DNA of 64,000 nt from Leptolyngbyaceae cyanobacterium (GTDB lineage: Bacteria; Cyanobacteriota; Cyanobacteriia; Phormidesmidales; Phormidesmidaceae), in contig CBDHHL010000025.1 in assembly GCA_965263355.1 (NCBI GenBank), positions 1-64,000 on the forward strand, given 5' to 3'. A program made the position numbers and the translations under genes. Under the pieces are notes generated by a model. The model was not told the DNA's origin. It saw only the letters and a list, made by a program, of their open reading frames with translations, and did not search any database. Every line of letters starts with the position of its first letter. The stretch's first letter is position 1. Positions 5,289 through 64,000 of this stretch are shown here, one piece after another.

Positions 5289-5353
5289 CGTTAGCCTCCT
5301 GGCATGGTTGCTTCACCAACTGCAGCTATAGTGCCCGACGAATCTTATTGATA

Positions 5354-6406
5354 TCAGCGTGCTCTATTGCTCGGTGGTGGAAATGGTGGACGACCAGCTG
5401 GTCTTACATCTCCAGAGGGGCTACTATTTACAAATCGCCGTTGAAAACTTTGATCCGGTGTACCTTTCACACAGCGGGGGATAAAGGGAAACATCTCGGT
5501 GATGTGATAGTGGTAAATACCGTTTGGGTGCTCGGGTGTAACACCAAAGCGACCATTACATTCATCTAGATCACCGAGCCCCGCTACATACTCAAAATCT
5601 TGGACAAAGGTGCCATCGTAGGTGCCACCGGGACCATTGGGGCGCTGCCCTGCTTTAAGCCGATAGCTACTCTGCAGTGACGTCAGACCACTGGTTGAGT
5701 TATTGATATCCCTATAACCGTACTGACCATAGACGGGAAATCCATCGGCAGCATAGCCGACTAAAGTCATTGATGTACCCTGGAGCAAGCCTGTTGGTAG
5801 ACCGTGGTAGTGATAAGACCCACTGGGTTGCACATGGGCATTATGTTGATCTAACCCCAGATTGATCCTTCCAGATAGGGCATCGTAGTTCCAGCCGGAG
5901 GTGCGCTCTCGATTCCAATATTCAGCTGTCCCTGGTTCAAAGGGAACACCGTTGAGGGCAACACCAAAGGCAGGTCTGGTGGGGGTGCTTGTCTCAGTTA
6001 GTTGGGGGGTCAGAGTAACTCGAAACCTATGGTTTTGCGCAGAAATACTGTTGGGGTTACCGGCATTGGGAAAATTTCCTGGTGCATGGTCTGGAATACC
6101 ATTGGAAGAAATATAGCGATAGCCTCCACGCTCCTCAATACTGATCTGATTCATCAATTGACTCTGCTGACTGATTAGTATTTTGGTCTGAGGATGGTCC
6201 AGCGCCATCATCTGAAGCAAAGTTTGGCTAAACAAAGCGATTGGATTATTAATTTGACTGGTATTTGCTTTGTTATACCCGTAGTTGGGCTCAATCCAGG
6301 CACTGATATCATGGGCAAATGCTGCTGTCCCCGTTATGCTCCCAAGTAAGGCTAACGTTCCGGCTACATAGCAGCTTAGTTGGTCGCCTGAGGGCATAAT
6401 TTTCAT
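5354..6406 (-). CDS. YHYH-domain secreted protein
   Basis: GSYHYHG and GIYHYHI motifs, GVALNGVP, GYAADGFPVYG, LDECNG; hydrophobic N-terminal signal ending AFA. Confidence 0.9.
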   Translation of the reverse strand: MKIMPSGDQLSCYVAGTLALLGSITGTAAFAHDISAWIEPNYGYNKANTSQINNPIALFSQTLLQMMALDHPQTKILISQQSQLMNQISIEERGGYRYISSNGIPDHAPGNFPNAGNPNSISAQNHRFRVTLTPQLTETSTPTRPAFGVALNGVPFEPGTAEYWNRERTSGWNYDALSGRINLGLDQHNAHVQPSGSYHYHGLPTGLLQGTSMTLVGYAADGFPVYGQYGYRDINNSTSGLTSLQSSYRLKAGQRPNGPGGTYDGTFVQDFEYVAGLGDLDECNGRFGVTPEHPNGIYHYHITEMFPFIPRCVKGTPDQSFQRRFVNSSPSGDVRPAGRPPFPPPSNRAR

Positions 6407-6570
6407 ACAGTAACCTCATCAATTTTATTTAGTCAGATTTAGCGGCTTTAGTATGCCCATGGGGGATCTTCGTCAAACGCATGGGTTACAGTCAGTCACA
6501 CTGGTTAACTCATCTAAAAAACGGTCGAGATTCTAACAGCCTATATGGGCACGCTTAAAAACAAATAAAC

Positions 6571-8889
6571 TTGTTCTGTTTGCTGAGGATAGCTGTGATT
6601 ATAGGACAGATCTCTAAACGCTTTCTCCGAAGCTACTTACTAAGGCTACCCTACCAGGCCCGTGTTGCACGATATGGAGCCCTGGTGGATGTGGGATGGT
6701 TAAAGTCTATTTTAGAAGAGATCAAACCAGATGTTTTGCCAGACGCCTTACAAGAGGTCGGGGTGCAGCAGGCTCCTCCAGATGTGATTCAAGCGCCTGC
6801 ACCACACTATCATCAATATCGGTGTTTGCAAGGAAATCCCTTAAGCTGCCAGGAACCGACCGATCAAACCAGATGTGAACAGTGTTATTTTCCGGCGCTG
6901 CTGCCAGCCGGAGGGCAGTTAATAGGTAAACAAGGTGAATATAAAATTGGTTCAAACCTGGGCCGACGTGGTATTGGCAGGCTTTATGAAGGGGTTCGTC
7001 TTAGCTCTGAAGAGCCGATTATTATCCAAGAATATTTACTCCCTGAACGATACTTTAGCCCAGATGAACAACGGCAATGCCAGGAATTGTTCACTACTTT
7101 AGCAGGACTGGCATTAGCCGATGGTCGAGTGCAGGATGCAAGAACTGTACTGCCGCTAGAAGCGATCGCAGATTTATCGGGTGAGCGTTGCTATTTGGTG
7201 ACACCCGCCGTAGATGGCAGTCCCACCCTAAATCGTTACTGTGCACAATATGGTGCTTTTGACAGTAAAGCGGTGTTATCAATGCTCAATCAGGTACTAC
7301 AAACCCTGATCTGCTTGCACCAGCAAAAATTCACTCTGCCAGCCGGTCAGGTGGAGACGGGGATTGTCCATGGCAATATCGGTTTGGATAGTCTCCTATG
7401 GGTTACTGACCCCAAAAGAAAAGACGCATCGGGCTTTGTTTATCTTACCGATTTTGCATTGTGGGAGAGATTTTTTGATCCCGCTCGTGTAGATCGAGAA
7501 CAGCCGGATTTTCAAGATGATTTGGCAGCTTTGGGACGGGTAGCCTTTTTTCTATTAAATGGTGCCACCCTGGATAGTGAGGGACAGCTCTTAAAACCGC
7601 ATCTTGATAGCAATTGGCCTGATACTTATGCTCCGCTTAAGCGATTTATTCTGCGGTTGATTGGGATTGAACTCCCCTTTACCAGTGCAGAATCGGCTCG
7701 GATGGCGTTGTTGGCTATGCCCCCCGAGGAAGCGGAGAGCCAGTGGGAACACCGTCAGACGGAACAGGCGGCTGTTAAACGAACCGGGTGCAAACGATTG
7801 ATTCCTATTTTAGTGGCCGCAGTTATTTTAGCTACGCTGGGTGTGTTTGGTTGGTTGCTGCTGAGGTCTCAGCGGCCCAGCTATGCAGATCCTCTCTTAC
7901 CTGCTTGTTGTTTAGACGCTATTGATGCTGTTCCTGTTGGTGAGTATCGTTATTCGATGCCCGTATCAGCCTATTGGTATCCGTTATTTCGGGCGACAGC
8001 AGACCCCTCGGCTGAGTTACTGCCCACACTGTTTGACCGCCTGCAAACACTACATCCAGAATTGTCCCTGGTCCCCCATGTGACTGAGTCGGTGGAGACT
8101 GCGATCAAAGCCATCCAGTCAGGCCAAACCGACTTTGCCATTGTGCCCTTAACTACTCCCCTACCCGCTGACATTACCAGCACGATCATCGCCTATGACA
8201 GTTTGGTCCCCGTGGTTGCCTTTAACTATCCCGATCGCACCAAGGGATTACCCGATGCCCTCAATGGTGACATTGAGTTATCGCAATTGAAACAGCTATA
8301 CACCGATGAAATTAACAATTGGCAACAGCTGAGTTCCTTTGATTTATCAGTCAAACGCTATTGGCCCAGCGATCCGACGGCCCAGGCAATGTTTACCCAA
8401 CGGGTACTACAACCGCCGGAAATGCCTGATATCGCTGATCCTGAGTCAACCAATCCAACGTTTATCACGACGGATGAGAGAGACGCGTTGCCCACCTTGA
8501 CTATGCTGCGCTGGATTTTGCAGGATTTTGAGAATACGACCATTGGCAGCATTGGAATTGCCCCCTTGAGTCAGGTATTTGGTCAGTGCTCGGTGTATCC
8601 GTTGGCGTTGAAGCAGGGGCGGCAATCGGTTACCCCCTTTGTGTTTAAGAATGGTAAGGCGGTGGGACCTGAAGGGAATTTGTGCGATCGCAAAGGCAGC
8701 TACACCCCCAATGGTGAAGCCCTTCGCACAGGTACCTATCCCCTAGCTTATCCCCTGGCAGTCATCTATCCCTTTGACAACAGTCGTTCTCCCATTGGCA
8801 AAAAGCTAGCCAAGTTGTTACTGACCCAAGAGACTCAGACCTATTTGACGTCGTTAGGCATGGTATCTGCTTATCCGTTGCCGGAATAG
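6571..8889 (+). CDS. Membrane Ser/Thr kinase-like (pseudokinase) protein with 4-Cys prefix and C-terminal PstS-like substrate-binding domain; true start probably GTG at 6685 or 6691
   Basis: C..C..CEQC prefix, GRRGIG loop, HGNI and DFA, one TM helix, PBP features IAYDSL and GTYPLAYPL. Confidence 0.8.
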   Translation: MFCLLRIAVIIGQISKRFLRSYLLRLPYQARVARYGALVDVGWLKSILEEIKPDVLPDALQEVGVQQAPPDVIQAPAPHYHQYRCLQGNPLSCQEPTDQTRCEQCYFPALLPAGGQLIGKQGEYKIGSNLGRRGIGRLYEGVRLSSEEPIIIQEYLLPERYFSPDEQRQCQELFTTLAGLALADGRVQDARTVLPLEAIADLSGERCYLVTPAVDGSPTLNRYCAQYGAFDSKAVLSMLNQVLQTLICLHQQKFTLPAGQVETGIVHGNIGLDSLLWVTDPKRKDASGFVYLTDFALWERFFDPARVDREQPDFQDDLAALGRVAFFLLNGATLDSEGQLLKPHLDSNWPDTYAPLKRFILRLIGIELPFTSAESARMALLAMPPEEAESQWEHRQTEQAAVKRTGCKRLIPILVAAVILATLGVFGWLLLRSQRPSYADPLLPACCLDAIDAVPVGEYRYSMPVSAYWYPLFRATADPSAELLPTLFDRLQTLHPELSLVPHVTESVETAIKAIQSGQTDFAIVPLTTPLPADITSTIIAYDSLVPVVAFNYPDRTKGLPDALNGDIELSQLKQLYTDEINNWQQLSSFDLSVKRYWPSDPTAQAMFTQRVLQPPEMPDIADPESTNPTFITTDERDALPTLTMLRWILQDFENTTIGSIGIAPLSQVFGQCSVYPLALKQGRQSVTPFVFKNGKAVGPEGNLCDRKGSYTPNGEALRTGTYPLAYPLAVIYPFDNSRSPIGKKLAKLLLTQETQTYLTSLGMVSAYPLPE

Positions 8890-50050: not shown

Positions 50051-50679
50051 TCATCTGAACAATTTCCAAAGTATAGCTGATTGTGAGTACATGATGAGTG
50101 AATAAAATAATCTCAATATTTCTGAAAATTTCACTTCAATATTTTACCAATATTTTACCTTTGGCTGCTTTAATGGAAGTAGATAAGCTTTGAAGTAAGA
50201 GTTGTCTAATATGATTTAGACTTCTTATTTATAGAAGACTTATCTGACTGGTAAGTTGTGGCGTAAATTGTTTGATTATTGCTGATTGTGAGCATATTAT
50301 GGATAGATAAGATAGTTTTGGTGTTGTCACCAAAATGCACCAGCAATTTAAGGCAATAAATTAGTGATGAGTGTCTTGGTTAAAGAGGCTGTACCAGCCT
50401 GCAATATTAAATGTTAATCAAGCCTCCACTTGCTGTATGGCATGTCAGAACGTGAGGTTTTGCGCTCTTTTCTATAAGTGTTTCGAGTTGTTGTGTGCTT
50501 GTAGTCAACGTAATTGTCTTAAGAAGTAATTTGGCAGAAAAACTGACCGCTATTGTTGAAATCATTGAGCAATTGTGGGTTTCGTCTATTGTCCTAAGTT
50601 GATTATTCACCTTATCGCTCAAGTTGATAGTTGATATTGCTTTTAATTCAACGTCTACGTAATTTTAGTGATTTTGTTC

Positions 50680-51891
50680 ATGGATAGCGTTCGCATGATG
50701 ATGATGAATCATATAGTCCAATCTAACCTAACTCAATATGAAGCCGAGGCTTTAGGGCAACAGTTCAATTATACCAATGCGTTTAATCAACAATCTCAAC
50801 CAGCTTGTCAGCGAAGAGTTATCGATAAACTTCCGGACATCTGGATGGAAACAGAGGAATTAAAGCAGAATGTTTTTGAAAATCGCTTTCTTGAAATCTT
50901 TTATGGCGTTCGTGGCATCGAGAATGGGCTTAGCTCAAGCAATGTAATGTTGCACTACTCTGCCTCCATTGCAATTGTTCATGTCGCAAACTATTTATCG
51001 AAAAAGAATCTAAGTGTTAGCCTGATCGAACCGTGCTTTGATAGTCTTTTTCAGGTGCTGGAACATCAAAATATTCAGATTTCTCCCCTTCAAGAAGAGC
51101 TACTGCATGACAGTGACAGTATTTATGAAAATCTGGTGCGACATGTCCAAGCAGATGCCCTTTTTCTTGTAGATCCAAATAATCCTACAGGATTTACAAC
51201 ATTGGGGGAAAAAAACAGAAAGTCATTTGAGGAAATCATAAGGTTCTGCAAAGATTATGATAAAATCCTAATTTTTGATCACTGTTTTGCATCTTTTTTG
51301 GCTTTCGATAATCGAGTGAAGTTGTACGATACTTATCATCTTCTGGAAAAGTCTGGAGTCAATTATATGGTAATTGAAGACACTGGAAAGTTCTGGCCAA
51401 TTCAAAGTACTAAGGTAGGAGTTTTAAAAGTTGCTAAAACTTTGTATCAAGAGATGCATGACATTTATACATCTTATCTTCTTAATGTCTCTCCATTTGT
51501 CCTGAACTTCTTAAGTGCGTACATCTTGGAGTCGTATCATGATAATTTTTACTCTATTAGAAGCTTACTAGCAAGGAATAGAGAGGTTCTAAAAGAAAGC
51601 CTTAAAGGCCAAATCTTGAAAGTCCTTGATAGTGATGCTAATACAAGTGTAGCGTGGTGTAAGATTCAGGATTCTAGCTTTAAATCAACTGATCTACAAA
51701 GATTTTTAATTGAAGAAAAAGGAGTGCATGTTCTGCCTGGAACATTTTTCTACTGGAATGAACCCTATCGAGGCGAGAAATATATCAGGATTGCATTAGC
51801 AAGGGATACCGAAAATTTCATACAAGGAATAACTCTTTTGAAACAGGGTCTCGAAGAATTCACTAAAAAGTGTTGTTTTTCTAATAAATAA
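50680..51891 (+). CDS. Fold-type I PLP enzyme of the MppP/RohP/Ind4 arginine-oxidase-like family (GntC-like activity possible)
   Basis: NLTQYE N-terminus, PCFD, PNNPTG, IEDTGKFWP (PLP Lys), VSPF, RIALAR align with recalled MppP motifs NLTQWE, IEDTGKLWP and RIALSR. Start uncertain (50668-50704). Confidence 0.8.
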   Translation: MDSVRMMMMNHIVQSNLTQYEAEALGQQFNYTNAFNQQSQPACQRRVIDKLPDIWMETEELKQNVFENRFLEIFYGVRGIENGLSSSNVMLHYSASIAIVHVANYLSKKNLSVSLIEPCFDSLFQVLEHQNIQISPLQEELLHDSDSIYENLVRHVQADALFLVDPNNPTGFTTLGEKNRKSFEEIIRFCKDYDKILIFDHCFASFLAFDNRVKLYDTYHLLEKSGVNYMVIEDTGKFWPIQSTKVGVLKVAKTLYQEMHDIYTSYLLNVSPFVLNFLSAYILESYHDNFYSIRSLLARNREVLKESLKGQILKVLDSDANTSVAWCKIQDSSFKSTDLQRFLIEEKGVHVLPGTFFYWNEPYRGEKYIRIALARDTENFIQGITLLKQGLEEFTKKCCFSNK

Positions 51892-51971
51892 TTTTTAGGT
51901 AACATTCTGAAGAATTACTACCAGTTCAAGGTGTAGTGAATTGGACAAAACCGCTTAGAAAGGTTAAAGCT

Positions 51972-53183
51972 ATGCAGTTAAATGACTTAGTGCACAACTG
52001 GAATAATTTTTCTCAAAGTGTTTCGAAGAACATTCACCTATGTGATGAAACATTGCGTGATGGGTTAGAAGGTGGTGTGAACCGGCTCCCTTCCCTGGAG
52101 GAAAAGCTAGATCTATTGAGTCTGGCAGATGCCTCGGGCATTGGCGACGTCATGGTCGGTTTTCCGGGGCAAGAGGTGACCTATCAGAATGCTCTTGCTA
52201 TTTGCAAAGGTGTGAAGCGTAAGGGACTGGAGACTCGACTTGGTCTACTAGGACGTATGGTTGAGGCAGATATCCAAGCCATTGATAATATTCGTCAAAG
52301 TAGTGGCTGCTCTGTGGTTGCTCATCTATTTATACCCTGTTCTCCGATTCGTCGTTATGTAGAACAGTGGGATATTGATGAATTAGAGAAACTAACTCGT
52401 TTTGGTGTTGGATTAGCGGTAAAACTTGGCTTACCCGTTAATTTCTCACCTGAGGATACGTCAAGAGCCGAGCCGAAGGTTGTTGAGCGTTTAAGTCGAC
52501 TTGCCGTTGAAGAAGGTGCGACAGAAATTACTATCTGTGACACGGTCGGTTGTCTTAATCCTGTAGGGACACAGCACCTCGTTCAGTTTTTTCGAGACTT
52601 TTTGGGTAAGGACAAGGAGCGAGTCCGATTAGACTTTCATGGTCATAATGATCGAGGATTAGCATTAGCTAATTCCTTAGCCGCAATTGCTGCAGGAGCT
52701 GATTGCATTCAAGGCACTATGCTTGGTATTGGTGAACGAGCAGGCAATGCTCCTCTTGACCTGATTATGGTCAATCTTCAGATGCAGGGATTGTGGAATC
52801 GTAACCCCCTGATAAATTTAAGAAAATACTGTACAGAGGTGGCCAGACTGTGTGACGTAAAAATCCCTGATAAATATCCAGTTTTTGGTAATCAGAGTTT
52901 CACAACGCAGATGGGGGTTCACGCATCTGCTATCCTTAAAGCAAAACTTCGTCAAAATGAGGATATAGCTGCCTGTATTTACTCTGGAGTTAATCCAAGC
53001 TTAGTTGGATTAAATTACAATATTCAGGTTGGGCCTTACAGTGGTCGTTCAAATGTCGAATATATTATGAATCAACATGGTATGCAGCTAACTGATGAAA
53101 CCATTGGTAATATTTTGGCAACAGCTCGTACTGAAAATCGAGTCCTAACAGAAACGGAAGTTCTTACATTAGCAAAACAATAA
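51972..53183 (+). CDS. LeuA/homocitrate-synthase-like DRE-TIM acetyl-CoA:2-oxoacid condensing enzyme without a regulatory domain
   Basis: DETLRDG, ICDTVG, HGHNDRGLALAN, GIGERAGNA, GVHA; only ~403 aa. ORF track starts at 51936. Confidence 0.9.
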   Translation: MQLNDLVHNWNNFSQSVSKNIHLCDETLRDGLEGGVNRLPSLEEKLDLLSLADASGIGDVMVGFPGQEVTYQNALAICKGVKRKGLETRLGLLGRMVEADIQAIDNIRQSSGCSVVAHLFIPCSPIRRYVEQWDIDELEKLTRFGVGLAVKLGLPVNFSPEDTSRAEPKVVERLSRLAVEEGATEITICDTVGCLNPVGTQHLVQFFRDFLGKDKERVRLDFHGHNDRGLALANSLAAIAAGADCIQGTMLGIGERAGNAPLDLIMVNLQMQGLWNRNPLINLRKYCTEVARLCDVKIPDKYPVFGNQSFTTQMGVHASAILKAKLRQNEDIAACIYSGVNPSLVGLNYNIQVGPYSGRSNVEYIMNQHGMQLTDETIGNILATARTENRVLTETEVLTLAKQ

Positions 53184-53209
53184 ATGATCTAACCTAGAAC
53201 ATTAGGGCC

Positions 53210-53357
53210 TGTTAATTATTAACTTGATTGGTTTGATGTTCTCCTTTTTTTAAGGGGGCTAGGGATATCTTTAAGTCCTCCTCATAGGTTTTGATGAGCC
53301 CCCTTATTCCCCCTAGAAAGGGAGAAGCCAGAGAAAACATGAAGTTAATAATTAACA
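53210..53357. mobile_element. MITE/REP-like element with 16 bp perfect terminal inverted repeats
   Basis: TGTTAATTATTAACTT ... AAGTTAATAATTAACA enclosing CTCCTT..AAGGGG and CCCCCT..AGGGAG cyanobacterial-type palindromes. Confidence 0.65.
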
Positions 53358-53412
53358 CCTTCTTAGATTAGTCAAAATTATGGAATAGAATCATCAAGAG
53401 AACTACCTTTTT

Positions 53413-54189
53413 ATGCACTACTTGTCTTTGTTTTTATACCCACTGCTGATAATTTCAGTATCAGGAGTAATTTTCTGGTCTTGGGAACTTCAACAGCCAT
53501 TGCGCAAAATTCCACACTTGCCAACATTCCTTCAGGATCTGAAAGAACTACCTATTATTCTTCTATTTATTGTTCTTTCTGCAAAGATTTATGCATATTT
53601 AGAAAGTTTATATATTCTGCCATTTTTTGAGGTTCTAGGTCAGAAACATAACTGGATTCTGATTCTATCAAGCCCTTTATGGATAAGAGTTGTTGTTGCA
53701 ATTTTACTCAAAGATTTAATTGCATACTGGTATCATTGGATGATGCATCATAATCTTGTTCTTTGGCATGCTCATAAGTGGCATCATATGCAGCAGCAAA
53801 TGTATTGGTTGAAAGGAAATAAAAATTCTTTGCTAGCTAAATTTATTGCTAAGTGGGACTTCATTGGATTCGCACTTCTAGGAATTCCCTTAGATTTAAC
53901 GTTGTTTTTTATCACACTCTACTCATTTTTTACCTTTTTTGTTCATAGCAATGTTGAGTGGCGACCTTGGATGAAGTATGTTGAGTATGTGTTTGTAACT
54001 CCTCGCTATCATCTAGTTCATCACTCCAGTAATATTGAACTTCAACAAAAGAACTTGGGGGATGTGTTCACATTTTGCGATCGCATATTTGGCACTTATA
54101 TTTGTCCAACAACTTTTGATATCGAACATGAAGATTTTGGCCTTGACGAGGAAGAGCCCTTAACCCTAAGAGTCATCTTAGGACTCTAG
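53413..54189 (+). CDS. Sterol desaturase / fatty-acid hydroxylase family membrane di-iron enzyme
   Basis: His boxes YWYHWMMHH, HKWHH, HSN, HLVHH; DRIFGT; TM helices. Confidence 0.92.
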   Translation: MHYLSLFLYPLLIISVSGVIFWSWELQQPLRKIPHLPTFLQDLKELPIILLFIVLSAKIYAYLESLYILPFFEVLGQKHNWILILSSPLWIRVVVAILLKDLIAYWYHWMMHHNLVLWHAHKWHHMQQQMYWLKGNKNSLLAKFIAKWDFIGFALLGIPLDLTLFFITLYSFFTFFVHSNVEWRPWMKYVEYVFVTPRYHLVHHSSNIELQQKNLGDVFTFCDRIFGTYICPTTFDIEHEDFGLDEEEPLTLRVILGL

Positions 54190-54195
54190 AAGACA

Positions 54196-55659
54196 ATGAC
54201 ATCTTATTTACTTACTAACTCTCAAAAAAGATGGGCTATTGCCGGAATTGGCACAAGTGCCTTAATGATTTCGACAGAGTTCTATATTGTCGGAGCTATT
54301 ATTCCTGTACTGATGGAGTATTTCCATGCAAGTTTTATGACAGTGCAGTGGATTATTCTAATTTATACGCTTGTCCTAACAGCCATGGTTCTTGGCGTAG
54401 CAAGGTTAGGAGACATCTACGATAAAAAACAGTTATTCTTGATTGGACTACTACTATTTACAGTTAGTTCATTGCTCTGTGGACTTGCATCTAGCATTAC
54501 GGCTCTAATTGTTTTCCGAGGATTACAGGGACTGGGAGCCGTGTTGATATGGGCGCTACGTAACGCAATTGTAACAGAAATATTTCCTGAAGACGAGAGG
54601 GGACAAGCAATCGGTTGGGTGACAGGACTTTCCTCTCTAGGGTTAGCGATTGGTCCAGGAATTGGTGGTTTGTTAATAGGTATTGGTGGTTGGCGTCTTT
54701 TATTTTGGATCAACCTTCCATTGGGGCTACTTGCCGGTTTAATTGTCGCTCGATATATTCCGAATTGCTTAGAGAACGGTCATTATAAAAAGTTTGATAC
54801 GATTGGGTTACTGCTGATGTTCATAACGTTGTCTTGTTTCGTCTTAGGAACATCGCGGTTACAAGATCTAAGCTCTATTGGGTTTCCTGAAATTGTGTTG
54901 ATGACTTTAAGTTTGGTCGGTTTCATATGTTTTTGGTACATTGAATCTCAGGTTGAAGAACCAATACTTGACTTAGAACTATTCCAGCTGCCTAAAATCA
55001 ATACAAATTTGCTGCTGTTTTTTGCAGTTTATATAATTGTTGGCCTTATTCAACTGGCATTTCCACTGTTCCTTGAATTGGGATTACACTACCCTACTAA
55101 TAAGGTGGGCTTTTTGCTAACGGTTTTACCATTGATGTCTGTTATTGTTTCACCTGTTTCAGGGTCACTTTCTGATCAATTTGGCGGTCGTAATGTTAGT
55201 TCTATTGGGCTTTTACTCATTATAATTGGATGCTTAGCATGCAGTACCTTAAATCAAGATTCAACAGTTATAGGTTTCTGCCTGCGGGGAATTCTTGTGG
55301 AATTGGGCCTGATTATTTCAGTAATACCAATCAGCAAAGTTGTTATGGATACAGTTCAACAGGAACAATTCGGAATTGCTTCAGGTTTACTGGCTCTCTC
55401 AAGAATGATTGGCATAGTCATGGGCACATGCTTATTTGGTATTTTCTTCTATATGTTTACTGTTTCTAATAGTAAATTACTGCCAAACCTTGAAAATAGT
55501 AGCAGTATGGCGAACCCATTGGATATGATGAGCTTACCGGTTATTACACTAATCCACAGTATAGACAGTATATTTCTTGCGATGGCTTTAATTGCCTCTG
55601 CTGCTGTTCTAATTCTTGTCTGGGAGTTACTCAGCATTAGCTGTAAAGAGAAGGCGTAA
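54196..55659 (+). CDS. MFS exporter, DHA2 (EmrB/QacA-like)
   Basis: ARLGDIYDKK, FRGLQGLG, GPGIGGLL, WRLLFWINLP; many TM segments. Confidence 0.92.
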   Translation: MTSYLLTNSQKRWAIAGIGTSALMISTEFYIVGAIIPVLMEYFHASFMTVQWIILIYTLVLTAMVLGVARLGDIYDKKQLFLIGLLLFTVSSLLCGLASSITALIVFRGLQGLGAVLIWALRNAIVTEIFPEDERGQAIGWVTGLSSLGLAIGPGIGGLLIGIGGWRLLFWINLPLGLLAGLIVARYIPNCLENGHYKKFDTIGLLLMFITLSCFVLGTSRLQDLSSIGFPEIVLMTLSLVGFICFWYIESQVEEPILDLELFQLPKINTNLLLFFAVYIIVGLIQLAFPLFLELGLHYPTNKVGFLLTVLPLMSVIVSPVSGSLSDQFGGRNVSSIGLLLIIIGCLACSTLNQDSTVIGFCLRGILVELGLIISVIPISKVVMDTVQQEQFGIASGLLALSRMIGIVMGTCLFGIFFYMFTVSNSKLLPNLENSSSMANPLDMMSLPVITLIHSIDSIFLAMALIASAAVLILVWELLSISCKEKA

Positions 55660-55713
55660 GAGTATATTACGAATATCACATTACTAAACTTAGCTATCTT
55701 TTGAAGTAGAGCT

Positions 55714-56460
55714 ATGCAACATCACAAGTTATTTGATGATAAAGCTGATTTGTATGCAAGCTCCAGGCCAACGTACCCCAAAGAAATATATAACTATCTA
55801 TCTAGTTTATGCAGTTCAACGCTGACAGCATGGGACTGTGCCTGTGGAAGTGGTCAAGTAGCAATAGGTTTGATTGATAAATTTGAGCGGGTTTACGCAA
55901 CAGACATTAGCGAAAATCAGCTAACTAATGCCAAACTACACCCAAACATCACTTATAAAATATCCTCTGCTGAAAACACCAATTTTGGTGATGATTTTTT
56001 TGATCTTGTTTGTGTTGCCCAAGCTCTTCATTGGTTCAATTTAGAAAGCTATTGGAATGAAGTGCACAGAGTTCTTAAGCCCAATGGTGTGTTTTCAGCT
56101 TGGGGTTATCTTTGGTCACCTGTGGATGAGTCTATAGAATCAGTAATTCAAGAATATATCTGGGATATAGTTGAACCTTACTGGACACCGCAGCATAGTC
56201 TTTTATGGAATCGTTATCGCAACATAGACTTTCCTTTTCGCAAAATCGAATCACCAGTCTTCAAAATGAACATGCTTTTATCTATCGATGAGCTTTTCAA
56301 CTTAATTCATACAACTTCTGCTGCTCGTCGGTATATGGATGACCATGGGGATGATTTTTTCCGAGAAGCCTATACTGCTGTCAGTGAGATTTGGGGTAGT
56401 CTGATACAGAAGAGAAAGATAGCTTTTAGTCTCATATTTTATGCTGGCCGTAGCAGATGA
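55714..56460 (+). CDS. Class I SAM-dependent methyltransferase (Tmt1/Crg1-like small-molecule type)
   Basis: YASSRPTYP, WDCACGSGQ, VAQALHWF, RVLKPNG. Confidence 0.9.
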   Translation: MQHHKLFDDKADLYASSRPTYPKEIYNYLSSLCSSTLTAWDCACGSGQVAIGLIDKFERVYATDISENQLTNAKLHPNITYKISSAENTNFGDDFFDLVCVAQALHWFNLESYWNEVHRVLKPNGVFSAWGYLWSPVDESIESVIQEYIWDIVEPYWTPQHSLLWNRYRNIDFPFRKIESPVFKMNMLLSIDELFNLIHTTSAARRYMDDHGDDFFREAYTAVSEIWGSLIQKRKIAFSLIFYAGRSR

Positions 56461-56794: not shown

Positions 56795-57670
56795 TTATCT
56801 TTCTTTGGGTGTTGACTTCAGCTGAGCACTGACTTCATTAGCCACAGCTTCCTTAGCTTTAGCCACTTCCATATCGGTCGATTCTTGAAGAAACTGCTTC
56901 AGATGAACTTGATTCACTTTAGCAATAAAACTCTCAACCGACTCCTGCACTTTGCGCTTTCGCTCTTTCTCATCGGGTAGATCAAAAAATCGATAGGATG
57001 GGGTTACACCCAAAATAAATTTCTCTTGCTCAGCTTCTAGCAGCTCTACAGCCCTGTTGGCAGCCATCCAGTTTTCTTGAAATGGAAAAGACGTCGCTAA
57101 GCTGGTGACGATGGAGGCAATGGCTGGGAAAATGACGGGTAACCACTTAATCCAGGATACTTGAATATCAACCTTGTCTAATAGAACAAGAATAGGAGTG
57201 ACACCAGACAAAATAATGGTCGAAATTTGGAACAAGTAGTAAATATTTCGAGAATTGGCGCGAGTATTTTTATAGTCATCAATCAGTTCTTGAGAGTACT
57301 GGATCGCGCGACCTCGCATCAGGTTCATTGATTCATCAGCAATGGCATTACCGAACAGACGACTATAAAGTTCTGCTTTAATCTGATTTTGTTTTTGCTG
57401 AGAAAAGCGGCGATAGTCACTCAGAGATTGACGATTTAAGAGCAAAAGTAGGAGTAAAATAATCGTTGCTGCCACGACTAAGATGATAATTTCTCGACGC
57501 TCCAGTAGCAGTAGTGCCAGGGCACCGAGGCCAACACAGATGGCGATCAGCAAAAATTCGATCAGGCTAAACCGTAAAGGAGTTTTGGGCTCTACGTCTA
57601 ATTCATTTTTGCTAGCCGTCGGATTGGCAATGTTGTTCTTTGTAATCGATTGCTTACTTGCTGGACTCAT
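56795..57670 (-). CDS. DUF4231 (SLATT-like) membrane protein with two extra N-terminal TM helices
   Basis: YYLFQISTIILSGVTPILV, second TM, then FQENW...ELLEAEQEKF; AAGGAG upstream. Confidence 0.8.
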   Translation of the reverse strand: MSPASKQSITKNNIANPTASKNELDVEPKTPLRFSLIEFLLIAICVGLGALALLLLERREIIILVVAATIILLLLLLLNRQSLSDYRRFSQQKQNQIKAELYSRLFGNAIADESMNLMRGRAIQYSQELIDDYKNTRANSRNIYYLFQISTIILSGVTPILVLLDKVDIQVSWIKWLPVIFPAIASIVTSLATSFPFQENWMAANRAVELLEAEQEKFILGVTPSYRFFDLPDEKERKRKVQESVESFIAKVNQVHLKQFLQESTDMEVAKAKEAVANEVSAQLKSTPKER

Positions 57671-58181: not shown

Positions 58182-60524
58182 ATGCATTGGTTGTTTACCC
58201 TTTACCACTGGCGATTCTGGTACCATCGTTCAATTCGATGGCGAGCGTGCATATTAGGTGCGTTGGCTTGTGGTTTGGTGGTTATATTCCAGTTGCGATC
58301 GCCAATAATTGCTGCCCCCAATAGCCCACTTCAACAGGCCCAAACGTTTAACGCCCAAGGTCAACAGGCCCTCACCTCAGGTCAGCCCGAAGCTGCCCTA
58401 AAGTATTGGCAACAGGCCGAAGAACAATACCAAAATGCTAACGATCAGCAGGGTCTGTGGGGGAGTCAGCTTAACCAGGCCAAAGCCCTGCAAAGCCTAG
58501 GATTTTATCGTCGTGCCCAGGCCCAACTGTTACAGCTGAGTACAGCCCTCACAGCCGCCCCCTCGTCCCTACTCAAAGTCAATGTCTGGCTCACCCACGG
58601 TCAGGGATTACGTCTTCTAGGAGAACTATCTGACTCCCAAACCTATCTAAAGCAAGGGTTGGCTATAGCCCAACAGCTAGGGGATAGTTCCTATGAGCAA
58701 GTGGCCCATCTGTATCTAGGCAATACCCTGGCCGCCCAACAGCAATGGTCAGCAGCCAGAACCCAGTATGACCAAGCTGTGGCCCTGGCTGGTTCTCAAC
58801 AGCTTACAGCTCAGCTACGACAGTTACAAACCCTGCCCCATCTGGGTCGAGTTGCAGAGATACGTCCCCAAGCCCAGGCCCTGGTTCAACGGATTTCCCA
58901 GGAGCCATCCAGCGCTACCAAGATGCATCTGATAATAGACTTGACTCAATGGCTATTGCAGTATTCTCCAAAAACGTTGTCTGCTCTTTCACCTGAAGCA
59001 CTGCTGCAAACCGCTATTCAACAAGCCCAAAGCCTGGAGGATCGTCGGTCTGAGTCCTATGGATGGGGCTATCTGGGCCGCTGGCATGAACACCAACAGC
59101 AGTGGTCAATAGCAGCCCAAGAAACACAAACCGCGCTTTCCCTGGCTCAAACCCTGGATGCCGATGAGCTACTCTATCAATGGCATTGGCAGCAGGGACG
59201 GATTGCACGAGTTCAAGGAAAATGGCAACAGGCTATTGGTTACTATACTGCTGCCGTGGATAGTCTGCAAAACCTACGTCAAGAGATTGTTGCGATTACT
59301 CGGGATGTTCAGTTTTCATTTCGCGATCAAATCGAACCGGTTTATCGTGATTTGGTCAGTCTATTGCTCACTCCAGCCTCGTTAGACAATGGGTCAGAAA
59401 AGGACTCTCAAGCTGCTCTAGAACAAGTTCGTCAGGTACTGGAAAACCTACAGCTAGCCGAACTGAATAATTTTTTTAGTGAACCTTGTATTGAATCGAT
59501 TTCTCAATCTCTCGATACCCTAGATCCCACTGCTGCCATCTTATATCCCATCATTTTGCCCGACCAGCTAGCGATAATCTTATCTATCCCTGGTCAACCT
59601 CTATACTATGCGTCCACTGACTTACCCCAAGCCACCATCGAGGCGGGTATTCAACAGATGTTGGACTCTATGCGGGCCACTTCGTTTCTCCAAGAGCGAT
59701 TAACTGCGGCTCAGCAACTCTATCAGTGGTTGATCGAGCCAATTGAAAATGTTCTCCAAGTAAATGGTATTCAAACTCTAGCGTTTGTTTTAGATGATGC
59801 CTTGCGTAATCTGCCTATTGCAGCTCTCTATGATGGTGAACATTACTTAGTTGAAAACTATCAGCTTGCTATTTCACCAGGTCTACAGTTGCTCCAAATT
59901 AATGATGCTCAAACCCAGTATGCAGAGTTAACAGCTTTGGTGGGTGGCCTCAGTGTTGGAAAAGATAACCGTCCGCCACTAGTGGGTGTTAAACAAGAAG
60001 TTACTCACATTGAGCAACTACTCGATGCCCAGATATTGTTGGATGAAGCATTTACTAATGTGGCCTTAATTGACCAAGCCCAGCAACGGTCGTTTGATAT
60101 TGTGCATTTAGCTACCCATGCTCAATTTGGAGAGACGGATGCAGAGACGTTTATTGAAACCTGGGATGGAACAATCCAGATTAATCAGTTACGACAATTG
60201 CTTAGACAACAGGAGATCCGTGGATTGCCACCAACGTTATTAGTTTTGAGTGCCTGTGATACAGCCCAAGGGAATAATCAGGCTGTTTTAGGCATGGCTG
60301 GTTTGGCGGTACGCTCAGGAGCACAGGCGACATTGGCGACACTGTGGAGTGTTAATGATCAGGCGACGGCTATGTTTATCCAACAGTTTTATGATGGTCT
60401 GGTTAATCAAGGGATGACTAAAGCAGGGGCGATCCAGGCTGCCCAACAGCAGCTGATCCAGACACCCTCATTTCAACATCCCTTCTATTGGGCTCCGTTT
60501 GTTCTTGTGGGCGATTGGCTTTAG
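58182..60524 (+). CDS. TPR + CHAT (caspase-like peptidase) domain protein
   Basis: TPR-like helices, VHLATHAQF, LVLSACDT (His/Cys dyad), ATLWSVND, HPFYWAPFVLVGDW. Confidence 0.95.
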   Translation: MHWLFTLYHWRFWYHRSIRWRACILGALACGLVVIFQLRSPIIAAPNSPLQQAQTFNAQGQQALTSGQPEAALKYWQQAEEQYQNANDQQGLWGSQLNQAKALQSLGFYRRAQAQLLQLSTALTAAPSSLLKVNVWLTHGQGLRLLGELSDSQTYLKQGLAIAQQLGDSSYEQVAHLYLGNTLAAQQQWSAARTQYDQAVALAGSQQLTAQLRQLQTLPHLGRVAEIRPQAQALVQRISQEPSSATKMHLIIDLTQWLLQYSPKTLSALSPEALLQTAIQQAQSLEDRRSESYGWGYLGRWHEHQQQWSIAAQETQTALSLAQTLDADELLYQWHWQQGRIARVQGKWQQAIGYYTAAVDSLQNLRQEIVAITRDVQFSFRDQIEPVYRDLVSLLLTPASLDNGSEKDSQAALEQVRQVLENLQLAELNNFFSEPCIESISQSLDTLDPTAAILYPIILPDQLAIILSIPGQPLYYASTDLPQATIEAGIQQMLDSMRATSFLQERLTAAQQLYQWLIEPIENVLQVNGIQTLAFVLDDALRNLPIAALYDGEHYLVENYQLAISPGLQLLQINDAQTQYAELTALVGGLSVGKDNRPPLVGVKQEVTHIEQLLDAQILLDEAFTNVALIDQAQQRSFDIVHLATHAQFGETDAETFIETWDGTIQINQLRQLLRQQEIRGLPPTLLVLSACDTAQGNNQAVLGMAGLAVRSGAQATLATLWSVNDQATAMFIQQFYDGLVNQGMTKAGAIQAAQQQLIQTPSFQHPFYWAPFVLVGDWL

Positions 60525-60817
60525 AGAGTATTAATACGTCTTATCACTAGACCAACTAAACCTCGTTTATGCCAAGAGGTCAGTTGTTCCAACTTACAAA
60601 TCTCTTGGGTGATTCGATCCAGGACAATGGCGAGAACAACAATTCCCAGCCCACCAACCGCTGAGAGACCCACATCCAGTCGGCCTACGCCTTGGAGAAC
60701 CATTAATCCTAGCCCTGGCACTGCAATCATGGCCGTAATCACCGACATGCCCAAAGCAAAAAGAACCGTTTGATTGATCCCAGCTAAGATACTAGGCATA
60801 GCCAAGGGCAACTGAAT
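60521..60817 (-). pseudogene. proW: 3' fragment of a glycine betaine/proline ABC permease
   Basis: IQLPLAMPSILAGINQT...GLG..VLQGVGRLDVG...IVLDRITQ; N-terminal part missing. Confidence 0.85.
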
Positions 60818-61041
60818 TACGACAACAGCTGTGGACTCAGTTGAAGGAAATCGGCGGGGTTCATATCAATGGTCATCCCACGTCCTCCCATGTGCTCTTG
60901 GCCATGGGGCGTCCAAAGCCCCTGGCGAGTGCTTCGATTCGATTTGGCTTAGGCCGAGCCACAACAGCAGTGGACATTGAACAGGTTGTGAAACACACCA
61001 CACAAACCATTTAGACTCTGCGCACCCGGCAGCATGGGTGA
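60811..61041 (+). pseudogene. iscS: 3' remnant of an IscS/NifS-type cysteine desulfurase with an internal deletion
   Basis: LRQQLWTQLKEIGGVHINGHPT joined directly to SSHVLLAMGRPKPLASASIRFGLGR; SGSAC loop absent; TAG at 61012-61014. Not in the ORF track. Confidence 0.8.
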
Positions 61042-61062
61042 TGGATCGGGCTCCATGTCAAA

Positions 61063-61689
61063 TTAACAAACCCGATAGGTCCAAATTTGCAAATAAATAT
61101 CAGGCTCAGTTTCAGGATGATTCTGAAAGGGGTCTCCAGTTTCAACTAATGTCCATTTTTCTGCTGCCTCAAGCGCTGGGAGCTTGTCCTTGAAGTCGCT
61201 TTTTTCATAATAGTCAGGACGAATTGTAAAGATGATATGACCTCCAGGTTTCGTAATGCGAATCAGCTCATCAAAACCACTACTAGGCGCGTGACCAATG
61301 GTGAATGTTCCCACACTGACAACAGCGTCAAATGAATCCGAAGAGAAATTTAGGGGAGTGCCTAATATCCCCTGATGGAGGCCTGTATAAACATTCTTTT
61401 TGCGGGCTTCCTCTAACATACCGATGGACAAATCCATCGCTTCCAAATTGGTATAGCCACGCTGATGCAGAACCTGTCCCACAAGTCCCGTCCCCGCTCC
61501 AGCATCCAAAATTTTAGATTCTTGAGAAACGTATTTAGCCAAGGTGTCGACGGTTAATTCTGGACAGAGATAATTCTCAGGTGGTAGATCACTATCGTAT
61601 TTCTTCGCCCAATCATCATAGCGTTCAGCTAATTCTTGAGCATTTTTGGAACTGTAAACCCAATGGACATTATCTGTTTTTGTAGTCAT
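61063..61689 (-). CDS. Class I SAM-dependent methyltransferase downstream of the PKS
   Basis: YDDWAKKYD, ILDAGAGTG, DLSIGML, RITKPGG. Confidence 0.92.
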   Translation of the reverse strand: MTTKTDNVHWVYSSKNAQELAERYDDWAKKYDSDLPPENYLCPELTVDTLAKYVSQESKILDAGAGTGLVGQVLHQRGYTNLEAMDLSIGMLEEARKKNVYTGLHQGILGTPLNFSSDSFDAVVSVGTFTIGHAPSSGFDELIRITKPGGHIIFTIRPDYYEKSDFKDKLPALEAAEKWTLVETGDPFQNHPETEPDIYLQIWTYRVC

Positions 61690-61755
61690 GACTCTTGACT
61701 CGTGTAAAAGTTACCAAAGTTATCTTGTACAAATTACCGCCCTTGGGGCAGGTGT

Positions 61756-64000
61756 TTATACTTTTCTAACCAAATCAACCGTGAATTGTTGAGCTAAGAC
61801 ACCTACATGAGGTGCTTTCAACAGGGTAAAATGATCGCCTGGAACTGTCTGAACCGTCAGGGAATCAGACAGTGATTGCCAGCCCCAAGTAGGATCCGTC
61901 AGTGTTTGGATGGCGTTAGGCAAATAATCACCTAAAATTCCTATCTCCTGGGCGCGGATAAAGGTCATAGGAATTCCTTCGAGCTGCTGAGGCTGGTAAC
62001 AGGCGCTGGCTTGAGTATTTGCCTTATACACGGCCAAAGACCGCCTTAAGTCAATTGTAGTGATGTTCTGTCCTGCTGTTTGCAACGCCGCTAGTAAAAC
62101 CTTGATCGGATCGTTTGTGACGCTAAATTCAGTCGGTGAGAGTGCTAGCGGTTGATCCACTAACCCTTGATAAAACTTGGCGAGTTCAATGACGTATTGG
62201 GTATCTGACCACTGATCAGAGGTTTGCTCAATATCAGGAACTTCCCGCTGGATATCTATCAGAACTAATCGAGAAATCTGGTCGCCCTGAGCTTGCAATT
62301 GCTGTGCAATCTCAAATGCCACTTTGCCACCGAAGGAGTATCCACCTAGATAATAGGGGCCTTTGGGTTGCACTGCTTTTATAGCTCGAATATGGTGGGC
62401 CGCTATATCCTTCATATTAGTGTACGGAACAATATTCTCATCTAACCCAAGGGAACGAAGCCCATAAAAGGGTTGATCTGTTCCCAATGCCTGAGATAAG
62501 GGCTGAAGATCTAGAACTGTTCCTAAAATGCCAGAGGCACAGAAGATAGGTGGCTGAGAACCCTGGGGTTGAATCGGTACTATGGTCGAAGAGAAAGACG
62601 GTGAACTGTTGCCATTATGTTGGGGCACCGCTGATTGAGGAGAATTTTGCCTAAGACTGGTGCCTTCAGTCTCAGGAACAATCAGCTCCATCAGTCGATC
62701 AACCAGGGCTGTAATGGTGGGATAGTCGAACACTAGGGTTGTGCGCAGGTTGCACCCTAAACTTGCTTGAAGGTCGTTCCTCAATTCAACTGCTGCTAAG
62801 GAATCTAACCCCAAGTCTACCAATCGTTGATCCAGATCAAGTTCCTCAGCTGTTTTCAAGCCTAGAGTTTTTGTGACTAACTTATAAACATGCTTTAATA
62901 CCAGGTCTCGGCGCTGATCAGCAGGCGTAGTCTGTAAAATAACTCGGATATTCTGAGTAGCCGATTGAACGGTGACCACTGAGGCGACCTGCTCATAAAA
63001 TCGGGGACGTTGTGAGAACTGTTGCACCCACTTTGACCATTCAACGGGCATTACTCCAATTTGACCTGCAGCCTGCGGCAATAGTTGACCAAGGATAGAC
63101 AATCCAGCAGTCGGTGCAATGTTAGCCAACCCCCAGTCTGCTAAGCGGTCCTGCTGGTCTTGATTAAGGCGAGCACTCATACCGACTTCCCCCCAAGGCC
63201 CCCAGTTGATACTGACCATAGGCAACCCTAGGGACTGGCGATGATAGGCCAAGGTATCCATAAAGGCATTGGCCGCTGCATAGCTGGCTAACCCATGGGA
63301 CCCTAACAGCGAGGTTAAAGATGAGAAGCAGACGAAGAACTCCAAAGGCTGTTGTTGCGTCAGTTGTTGTGTTAGCTGATGTAGGTTCCAAGTTCCTTGG
63401 ACTTTTGCCGCTAATCCTTGGGCAAACCGAGGCCAATCTTGTTGCCATAGGCCACCAAACTCAACCACGCCTGCTGCATGGATAATCCCCAGCAGCGAGC
63501 GCTCAGACGCTTTCAATGCATCCAAAATTGCTCTAACCTGCTGGGCATCGGCAATATCTGCCTGGACAATAGTAATATCAGCACCTGCCTGTTCAAGCCT
63601 CTGAAGCTGTTGTTGCATATGGGGCTGAGCCTGACTCCGACCGACTAAAACCAACTGCCGAGCACCGTGGGCAACCAGCCATTCTGCCACCTGCAAGCCT
63701 AGGGCTCCCAATCCCCCTGTAATCAGATAAGACCCATCTGCATGGCAGGTGAACGATTGACCTGATAAAGCATCGTTGCGGCGTTTGAGTCGGGCAACAT
63801 ATCGGGTTTGGTTGCGCCAGATGACTTGCTCTTCGCCGTCCTGCGATCGCAATTCTGCCAGTAGAGAGGAGACCAGGGTTTCATCATGGGCTTGAGGCAA
63901 TACATCAACCCGAACACAATGCAGATCTGGATGTTCTAGGGCAATGACTTTGCCCATGCCCCAGAGAGGAGATTGAGCCAATCCAGGAACAGTTGTTGAT
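61756..64000 (-). CDS. Type I polyketide synthase terminal part (KR-ACP-TE); 5' end beyond the window
   Basis: ITGGLGALG, HAAGV, SYAAAN (KR); LGLDSL (ACP); GYSFG and GDHF (thioesterase). Confidence 0.95.
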   Translation of the reverse strand, partial: STTVPGLAQSPLWGMGKVIALEHPDLHCVRVDVLPQAHDETLVSSLLAELRSQDGEEQVIWRNQTRYVARLKRRNDALSGQSFTCHADGSYLITGGLGALGLQVAEWLVAHGARQLVLVGRSQAQPHMQQQLQRLEQAGADITIVQADIADAQQVRAILDALKASERSLLGIIHAAGVVEFGGLWQQDWPRFAQGLAAKVQGTWNLHQLTQQLTQQQPLEFFVCFSSLTSLLGSHGLASYAAANAFMDTLAYHRQSLGLPMVSINWGPWGEVGMSARLNQDQQDRLADWGLANIAPTAGLSILGQLLPQAAGQIGVMPVEWSKWVQQFSQRPRFYEQVASVVTVQSATQNIRVILQTTPADQRRDLVLKHVYKLVTKTLGLKTAEELDLDQRLVDLGLDSLAAVELRNDLQASLGCNLRTTLVFDYPTITALVDRLMELIVPETEGTSLRQNSPQSAVPQHNGNSSPSFSSTIVPIQPQGSQPPIFCASGILGTVLDLQPLSQALGTDQPFYGLRSLGLDENIVPYTNMKDIAAHHIRAIKAVQPKGPYYLGGYSFGGKVAFEIAQQLQAQGDQISRLVLIDIQREVPDIEQTSDQWSDTQYVIELAKFYQGLVDQPLALSPTEFSVTNDPIKVLLAALQTAGQNITTIDLRRSLAVYKANTQASACYQPQQLEGIPMTFIRAQEIGILGDYLPNAIQTLTDPTWGWQSLSDSLTVQTVPGDHFTLLKAPHVGVLAQQFTVDLVRKV

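Follow-up and report, generated by a model that had tools for sequence, protein, structure and literature searches.

What does a cyanobacterium make with an offshoot of the arginine oxidases, a LeuA-like synthase, a membrane di-iron hydroxylase and an exporter, all encoded in one short row? The question is raised by positions 50680-56460 (+ strand) of the 64,000-nucleotide stretch of contig CBDHHL010000025.1 analysed here (the window), which is cyanobacterial judged by gene content and homologue names. Five open frames lie there intact and co-oriented, with intergenic gaps of 80, 229, 6 and 54 nt, and fall into the families Aminotran_1_2, HMGL-like/LeuA, PF04116, MFS_1 and Methyltransf_11, so that the layout and the family calls of an earlier reading of this DNA (the original prediction) are borne out. 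That reading had taken all five genes as one unit for an arginine-derived small molecule. What our data support directly are the gene content, its conservation, the residue changes and the selection acting on them. From these we infer, with a probability of about 50%, a pathway in which arginine would be converted to 2-ketoarginine and then to 2-(3-guanidinopropyl)malate, which would be oxidised and exported.

Conservation of a four-gene cassette

The conserved unit is smaller than the predicted one and consists of four genes, those for the pyridoxal phosphate (PLP) enzyme, the LeuA-like synthase, the PF04116 hydroxylase and the major facilitator superfamily (MFS) exporter. In this order they recur in nine other loci (L001, L103, L162, L174, L175, L176, L177, L180 and L191), as the expected co-occurrence in other genomes had implied, and the last three are present in L190, where the contig ends just upstream. 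The MFS exporter is found in every other cassette locus at 56-64% identity. The methyltransferase lies beside none of the other cassette copies and was not found in five cassette genomes, in a search run without a positive control; this absence rules it out as a core gene and removes methylation as a core step and the five-gene unit as originally drawn. It is weakly similar to the yeast trans-aconitate methyltransferase (E 3e-11) and to HvrF (E 2e-5), and because of this likeness the capping of a carboxylate would fit, which the enzyme may carry out at this locus alone.

The association of the genes was compared over the 84 PLP-bearing loci that were left once 22 small regions duplicated within wider ones had been removed. 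All nine loci other than the window whose PLP enzyme carries the Asn-x-Phe motif described below have the synthase, the hydroxylase and the MFS gene within 5 kb; in the remaining 75, a LeuA-like neighbour occurs in three and a hydroxylase in none, with the motif not covered in five of these loci and many of them on short contigs. Synthase or hydroxylase queries had led to most of the cassette loci, which makes the co-occurrence partly one of construction, and for this reason a PLP-driven search of 401 genomes is the cleaner test. Four genomes matched, two with a Phe-type enzyme and the cassette and two with a His-type enzyme and a dihydrodipicolinate synthase (DHDPS)-like aldolase. The cassette is rare and scattered among cyanobacteria: the synthase was matched in 2 of 401, 8 of 389 (six of these being cassettes) and 2 of 144 genomes, the hydroxylase in 6 of 401. 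Its flanks vary between loci.

Nonribosomal peptide synthetase (NRPS) and polyketide synthase (PKS) genes had been reported absent. This holds inside the cluster but not for its surroundings, as the end of a PKS (KR-ACP-TE domains) lies 5.3 kb downstream on the opposite strand. A link between this PKS and the cassette was rejected, the only match being a generic one (27-28%) with PKS genes from loci that lack the cassette. The open reading frames listed near the other cassette copies showed no NRPS or PKS frame, as judged from translations and not from a domain scan.

A RohP-derived enzyme with altered catalytic residues

Compared by sequence with proteins of solved structure, the PLP enzyme is closest to RohP (E 1.8e-110), followed by Plu4 and MppP (about 1e-46 to 1e-43), with ordinary aminotransferases at 3.4e-8 or weaker. 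Its predicted fold superposes on RohP with a TM-score of 0.92, a root-mean-square deviation of 1.4 Å and 44% identity, and on GntC of the guanitoxin pathway with a TM-score of 0.74 and 15% identity. It is an Aminotran_1_2 protein whose best curated models, the MppP equivalog TIGR04462 (158.8 bits against a cut-off of 450) and GntC NF041364 (74.6 against 415), both score far under cut-off. Sequence and fold together rule out an ordinary aminotransferase lineage, so that the expected grouping with arginine oxidases and not with aspartate aminotransferases was found, and on these comparisons we assign the enzyme to an offshoot of RohP, not of GntC. A plasmid search returned two records at 30-32% identity.

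The catalytic motifs had been described as intact. This is correct for the PLP lysine and the PLP-binding residues but not for the Asp-x-His motif of RohP and MppP (Asp32/His34 in RohP, counted after removal of an inferred 20-residue tag; D27/H29 in MppP, read directly), which is Asn33-x-Phe35 here. T18, E21, Y93, S96, F120, N168, D200, K237, K245 and R370 are retained, and N33, F35, S122 and S243 stand where RohP-type enzymes have D, H, N and D. Among the best 120 homologues, Phe occupies the RohP His34 position in all 11 members of one sub-clade and His in 107 of the 109 others; the 11 form a single branch (support 100 in a quick tree of 62 of the 120) among His-keeping cyanobacterial proteins. 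The more distant 50%-cluster representatives gave 152 aligned segments with 122 His, 26 in which the site was not covered, four other residues and no Phe. Within the sub-clade K237, K245, D200, N168, F120, S96, Y93 and R370 are invariant (11/11), T18 and E21 are kept in 11/11 and T264 in 9/11, and position 122 is S or G in 11/11. Changes affect twelve positions with a conservation of 90% or more in the 109 canonical homologues, and several of these belong to the active site; among them are Asn121 (now Ser/Gly) and Asp241 (now Ser/Asn/Gly), and Asp32 is also replaced.

The cassette enzyme shares its fold, PLP lysine, PLP-binding residues and N-terminal Thr/Glu with the O2- and PLP-dependent arginine oxidases RohP (azomycin), MppP, MilM, Ind4 and Plu4, but has lost their His (now Phe), Asp32, Asn121 and Asp241. 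It also differs in its partner, a LeuA-like synthase in place of the DHDPS-like aldolase that stands beside the canonical copies in L082, L083, L164, L166 and L182. In L083 (9989-21143), L164 (10675-14339) and L166 (3143-6250) the canonical cyanobacterial RohP homologue is followed by this aldolase and a PhyH/ectoine-hydroxylase-like dioxygenase, and in L083 an NRPS-like frame follows the row.

The Phe-type gene appears to be maintained. Its dN/dS is 0.10-0.16 in the four of six pairs that were not saturated, similar to that of the other three cassette genes, which indicates purifying selection, and the Asn33 and Phe35 codons have no alternative letter in two public assemblies (possibly the source of the window itself). 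Clade-wide Phe, purifying selection and the same letters in two assemblies rule out that the changed His codon reflects decay or an error of sequencing.

Published variants suggest what such an enzyme would do. RohP H34A is reported to lose hydroxylation while keeping full oxo-product activity (10.64898/2026.02.25.707955, citing Hedges 2018), and MilM N118A to make only the oxo product (10.64898/2026.02.25.707955), which is 2-ketoarginine. Of the 14 residues that this preprint names for PLP, substrate or catalysis, 12 are identical in the PLP enzyme, the exceptions being His31 and Asn118, as mapped by spacing through RohP and not by alignment to MilM. Because the residues for hydroxylation (His34, Asp32 and Asn121) are lost, the simplest reading is that the enzyme would make plain 2-ketoarginine and stop; this product is more probable than the oxidised or cyclised keto acid of the original prediction. 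The enzyme may alternatively have changed its substrate or work as a plain transaminase. The twelve altered positions, together with a hydroxylase family that normally takes lipids, would suit a pocket reshaped for Lys, Orn, citrulline or a hydrophobic amino acid and, as the product, another alkylmalate or a molecule resembling a lipid. We consider this distinctly unlikely given the retained T18, E21 and T264, a sister synthase that adjoins two genes of families making or modifying 2-ketoarginine, and the amidinotransferases that adjoin hydroxylases outside the cassette.

Partner enzymes and the predicted product

The synthase belongs to the HMGL-like/LeuA families, with every NCBIfam score under its curated cut-off, and comprises a TIM-barrel catalytic domain with an Asp-Arg helix, a His-x-His metal site and a post-barrel subdomain; its metal motifs are intact. 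The folds nearest to its predicted structure are methylthioalkylmalate synthase (MAM, the top match) and then homocitrate synthase (HCS). Its pocket residues L93/N157/S159/T187/Q247 (L/N/S/T/Q) agree with those of isopropylmalate synthase (IPMS, L/E/S/N/E) at two of five positions and with those of HCS (H/R/T/S/H) and HphA (A/D/A/M/S) at none (codes as given in PMC12961565). Position 33 is Glu in all cassette synthases and Gln in the 44 other alignment rows; the rows with Glu, 23 in number, fall on a single branch (support 99 in a quick tree of 67 rows). Gln at this position usually serves to stabilise the enolate. The clade-specific Glu33 may instead pair with a guanidinium.

The sister lineage within the Glu33 branch is the synthase of L182, where an operon (L182:5820-12154) encodes in order a canonical RohP homologue, a DHDPS-like aldolase, a 2-ketoarginine methyltransferase (TIGR04543, 465.7 bits and thus above the curated cut-off of 425), the Glu-type synthase and a LeuD-LeuC fusion, with a MATE gene opposite. 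Because this synthase adjoins a canonical RohP and a 2-ketoarginine methyltransferase, the genomic context favours an arginine-derived 2-oxoacid as the substrate, as had been proposed. Glu-type loci from the synthase searches were near an arginine-oxidase-family gene in eight of eight cases, and a PLP-oxidase neighbour was found in none of three Gln-type cyanobacterial synthase loci (L002, L178, L179) and none of 78 distant loci. The L182 operon is itself a candidate (methyl)arginine chain-extension pathway and gives a clue to a possible cyanobacterial route of arginine extension, the homologated form of arginine being found in microcystins (PMC6562525). L139 and L140 combine an unrelated synthase lineage with a His-keeping arginine-oxidase homologue, which by sequence appears to be an independent pairing of oxidase and synthase; the row there (L140:528-6178, also in L139) consists of a butyrobetaine-dioxygenase-like gene, a fumarylacetoacetate-hydrolase-family gene, the oxidase homologue, the distant LeuA-like gene and a PurC-like ligase gene.

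Gln-type relatives of the synthase in L178 (168-4313) and L179 (9564-14759) also adjoin LeuD-LeuC fusions. L179 carries two different synthases and a LeuB-like gene (hphA/hphB-like genes) next to an NRPS/PKS-like frame, and L178 encodes an MFS protein 43% identical to that of the cassette. The fusions in L178, L179 and L182 and the hphA/hphB-like genes speak for a homologation of arginine, in which a PLP enzyme turned aminotransferase, an HphA-like extension and the host LeuCD and LeuB would give homoarginine, and the di-iron enzyme an exported hydroxy-homoarginine. The nearest hydroxylase outside the cassette (L192) adjoins a gene like arginine:glycine amidinotransferase (AGAT), and AGAT-like amidinotransferases can make homoarginine. 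Aminotransferases are said to lack the catalytic His (10.64898/2026.02.25.707955), and homoarginine occurs in microcystins, its origin there being called unclear (PMC6562525). We nevertheless think this route unlikely. The characterised cyanobacterial route needs dedicated HphB and HphCD (PMC6562525, PMC12961565), which are absent from the 11 cassette loci; no isomerase or dehydrogenase gene was found in any of these loci. The tested cassette genomes gave only housekeeping-level matches: a LeuD-LeuC fusion query returned 36-41% matches in three of seven and none in four, compared with 67-100% in three control genomes, and an hphB-like query returned a single match of 39-43%, the level of LeuB, in each of five genomes, four of them cassette genomes. 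No LeuD-LeuC fusion was found in the seven cassette genomes, although the search was insensitive to housekeeping LeuC, as shown by the four genomes with no match at all. The presence of an exporter also suits a finished small molecule more than a building block for peptides, and the cassettes showed no adjacent NRPS frame. That no dedicated isomerase or dehydrogenase was found favours a pathway ending at a tailored malate.

The hydroxylase scores 88.9 bits against PF04116 (cut-off 31) and its His boxes align in 13 sequences. Its 46 hits include 14 other clusters at 55-72% identity, with the next at 39% or less, which marks it as a small, tight, apparently cassette-linked subfamily; an ESM Atlas search returned generic PF04116 clusters only. 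The closest relatives outside the cassette, in L192 (56%) and L193 (37-38%), both lie in amidinotransferase clusters, whose amidinotransferases match AGAT with E 9e-139 (L192, to the human reference structure) and E 6e-55 (L193), and these neighbours point to guanidino substrates. The L192 operon (5065-8507) comprises the AGAT-like amidinotransferase, an EamA transporter and the hydroxylase relative. L193 (1399-15235) holds an amidinotransferase, a sulfotransferase, two PF04116 hydroxylases, two TauD dioxygenases, an O-methyltransferase, a P450 and an EamA gene, and is likely to be an uncharacterised guanidino-compound pathway.

The guanitoxin pair GntB/GntC is likewise a cyanobacterial membrane hydroxylase beside a fold-type I PLP enzyme, a parallel on which the original prediction had leaned. 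GntC is described as a PLP cyclodehydratase that works independently of O2 and receives its substrate from a transmembrane hydroxylase (PMC10367076). If the cassette followed the same order, the di-iron enzyme would make 4-hydroxyarginine, the His-less PLP enzyme would cyclise or deaminate it, the upstream hydroxylation could offset the loss of the oxidase His, and the synthase would act afterwards. We regard this as highly improbable, since neither cassette gene fits the Gnt models and no other gnt genes are present. The GntB model NF041365 gave no match at E 0.01 among three cassette hydroxylases but matches other genes in two cassette genomes (G100 and G704), and this, with the low GntC score and the 15% identity in the fold match, led us to reject the parallel. 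The literature itself is split on GntB, which is called transmembrane (PMC10367076) or alpha-ketoglutarate-dependent (PMC12371840).

In the pathway from arginine to an exported malate, the RohP offshoot would bind PLP and L-Arg, and 2-ketoarginine would be its sole released product; O2-dependent oxidative deamination is the most likely reaction and transamination a possible one. The LeuA-like enzyme would then condense 2-ketoarginine with acetyl-CoA to 2-(3-guanidinopropyl)malate. Because no dedicated isomerase or dehydrogenase is encoded, the membrane di-iron enzyme would be the one to tailor the malate, by hydroxylation or desaturation that replaces the oxygenation lost by the PLP enzyme, and the MFS pump would export the product.

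Parts of this chemistry have known counterparts. In HphABCD of Nostoc punctiforme and in plant MAM, too, a short DRE-TIM synthase joins a 2-oxoacid derived from an amino acid with acetyl-CoA; MAM heads the fold matches of the cassette synthase, and relatives of the latter adjoin LeuD-LeuC fusions. A long branch, however, sets the cassette synthase well apart from the HphA-like protein of L179, the pocket residues differ, and the cassette has an exporter but lacks isomerase and dehydrogenase. In the pantaphos (hvr) pathway of Pantoea ananatis, a LeuA homologue joins a 2-oxoacid and acetyl-CoA, followed by oxygenation and MFS export; a trans-aconitate-type methyltransferase is an accessory, and the pathway ends at a hydroxylated maleate (PMC7858074). 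The cassette differs in having no phosphonate genes or dehydratase, a di-iron and not a flavin oxygenase, and an arginine-type entry enzyme. MilM/MilN of mildiomycin also join an arginine-oxidase keto acid by a C-C bond at C2, and 2-ketoarginine itself has been proposed to enter mildiomycin D (PMC12464687), but there the coupling partner is a nucleoside, the coupling enzyme is MilN and MilM retains its His.

Besides the partly constructed co-occurrence and the insensitive LeuD-LeuC search, several points weigh against the proposed pathway. The PLP gene is broken in two of the nine other loci (a frameshift in L103 and a 129-codon gap in L175) in which the other three genes are whole, and so it may be dispensable. 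Loss of the catalytic His would not always be benign, as MilM H31A is reported to lose PLP and to retain about 10% of oxo-product activity (10.64898/2026.02.25.707955). MilM Asn118 (RohP Asn121) is proposed to hold the guanidine tail (10.64898/2026.02.25.707955), and its loss plus the His-to-Phe change could mean a different substrate. The synthase pocket would exclude the substrates of IPMS, HCS and HphA but names none of its own. The usual substrates of PF04116 enzymes are lipids, and among named models the hydroxylase matches only the ornithine-lipid hydroxylase OlsE, at 63 against 475 bits.

As to what the product is for, a more specific suggestion is tentative, and we hold it as doubtful: an arginine-oxidase offshoot limited to the two-electron step (a natural counterpart of H34A) and a guanidinium-adapted synthase would yield, without NRPS or PKS, an oxidised 2-(3-guanidinopropyl)malate, an uncatalogued metabolite resembling guanidinoethylmercaptosuccinic acid (GEMSA) and exported against grazers or competitors. 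Guanidinopropylsuccinate is a closer analogue of the predicted product, and a literature search for it found nothing. Arginine analogues of the GEMSA type (guanidinoalkyl-succinates) inhibit basic carboxypeptidases (PMC7830380, PMC5434747), and a role like that of a carboxypeptidase inhibitor is speculation by analogy.

Every enzyme family in the cassette is already known. In a literature search that did not cover Hedges 2018, Han 2015/2018, Lima 2022, Hoffarth 2021 or MIBiG, no paper came up that combines an arginine oxidase and a LeuA-like enzyme, nor did the His-less sub-clade, the Glu-type synthase or their combination, though the networks and supplements of these primary papers may mention the sub-clade. 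If the proposed pathway is true, a natural, selected variant of an arginine oxidase splits the first oxidation from hydroxylation and offers a direct test of the role of His34. The synthase would be a DRE-TIM enzyme for a cationic 2-oxoacid, of relevance to amino-acid homologation, where the selectivity of HphA is a stated bottleneck (PMC12961565). The hydroxylase would be a member of PF04116 whose substrate is a soluble guanidino compound, and the whole a four-gene, NRPS- and PKS-free cyanobacterial pathway small enough to be expressed entire.

Gene layout and surroundings in the window

Table 1. Genes of the cluster and the intergenic element, with positions in the window.
Feature	Position	Strand	Remarks
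RohP-derived fold-type I PLP enzyme	50680..51891	+	403 aa, shorter starts possible; function predicted from published variants
Short-form LeuA/homocitrate-synthase-like DRE-TIM enzyme	51972..53183	+	403 aa, without regulatory domain
PF04116 membrane di-iron hydroxylase/desaturase	53413..54189	+	258 aa, complete His boxes
DHA2/EmrB-like MFS exporter (MFS_1)	54196..55659	+	487 aa
Class I S-adenosylmethionine methyltransferase (Methyltransf_11)	55714..56460	+	248 aa; accessory, this locus only
Element of about 150 nt with a 19-nt inverted repeat at its ends (95% complementary, enclosing 110 nt)	53210..53357		Like a miniature inverted-repeat transposable element, or a hairpin

The inverted-repeat element sits in the gap between the synthase and hydroxylase genes, and no second copy was present in the window or in the compared loci. 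The cluster is somewhat AT-richer than its surroundings (GC at third codon positions 0.33-0.35, against 0.35-0.46 in ten other window genes) and has a single HIP1 site over its 5.8 kb, compared with 28 for the 49.7 kb on its left. Both features lend slight weight to a horizontal arrival of the cluster. A promoter and terminator scan gave no excess over shuffled sequence (15 vs 21.6 and 6 vs 5.1), and nothing similar to the 960-nt leader that precedes the cassette turned up in the fetched loci. This leader, here counted as 940 nt, contains an imperfect direct repeat of 38 nt (76%; 50072-50109 and 50277-50314), which could be a regulator site or due to chance.

Downstream of the cluster in the window (56795-57670) and upstream of the cassette in L175 (6955-7833), the flank is a DUF4231 gene, the two being 53% identical. 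The PKS end (KR-ACP-thioesterase) is part of a minus-strand region at 60521-63981 that also encodes a methyltransferase and a short ABC-permease-like frame, the latter with a 68% match near a PKS in L165. On the other side of the cluster, judged from translations, four very large sensor genes stand in a row on the minus strand (13873-43235, 2073-3060 aa), three of which start with a kinase/ATPase-like region and two of which share near-identical histidine-kinase tails. A 1304-aa protein encoded at 1374-5288 (-) has a long tail of unassigned family, and its N-terminal part presumably resembles DUF4157/eCIS-core proteins.

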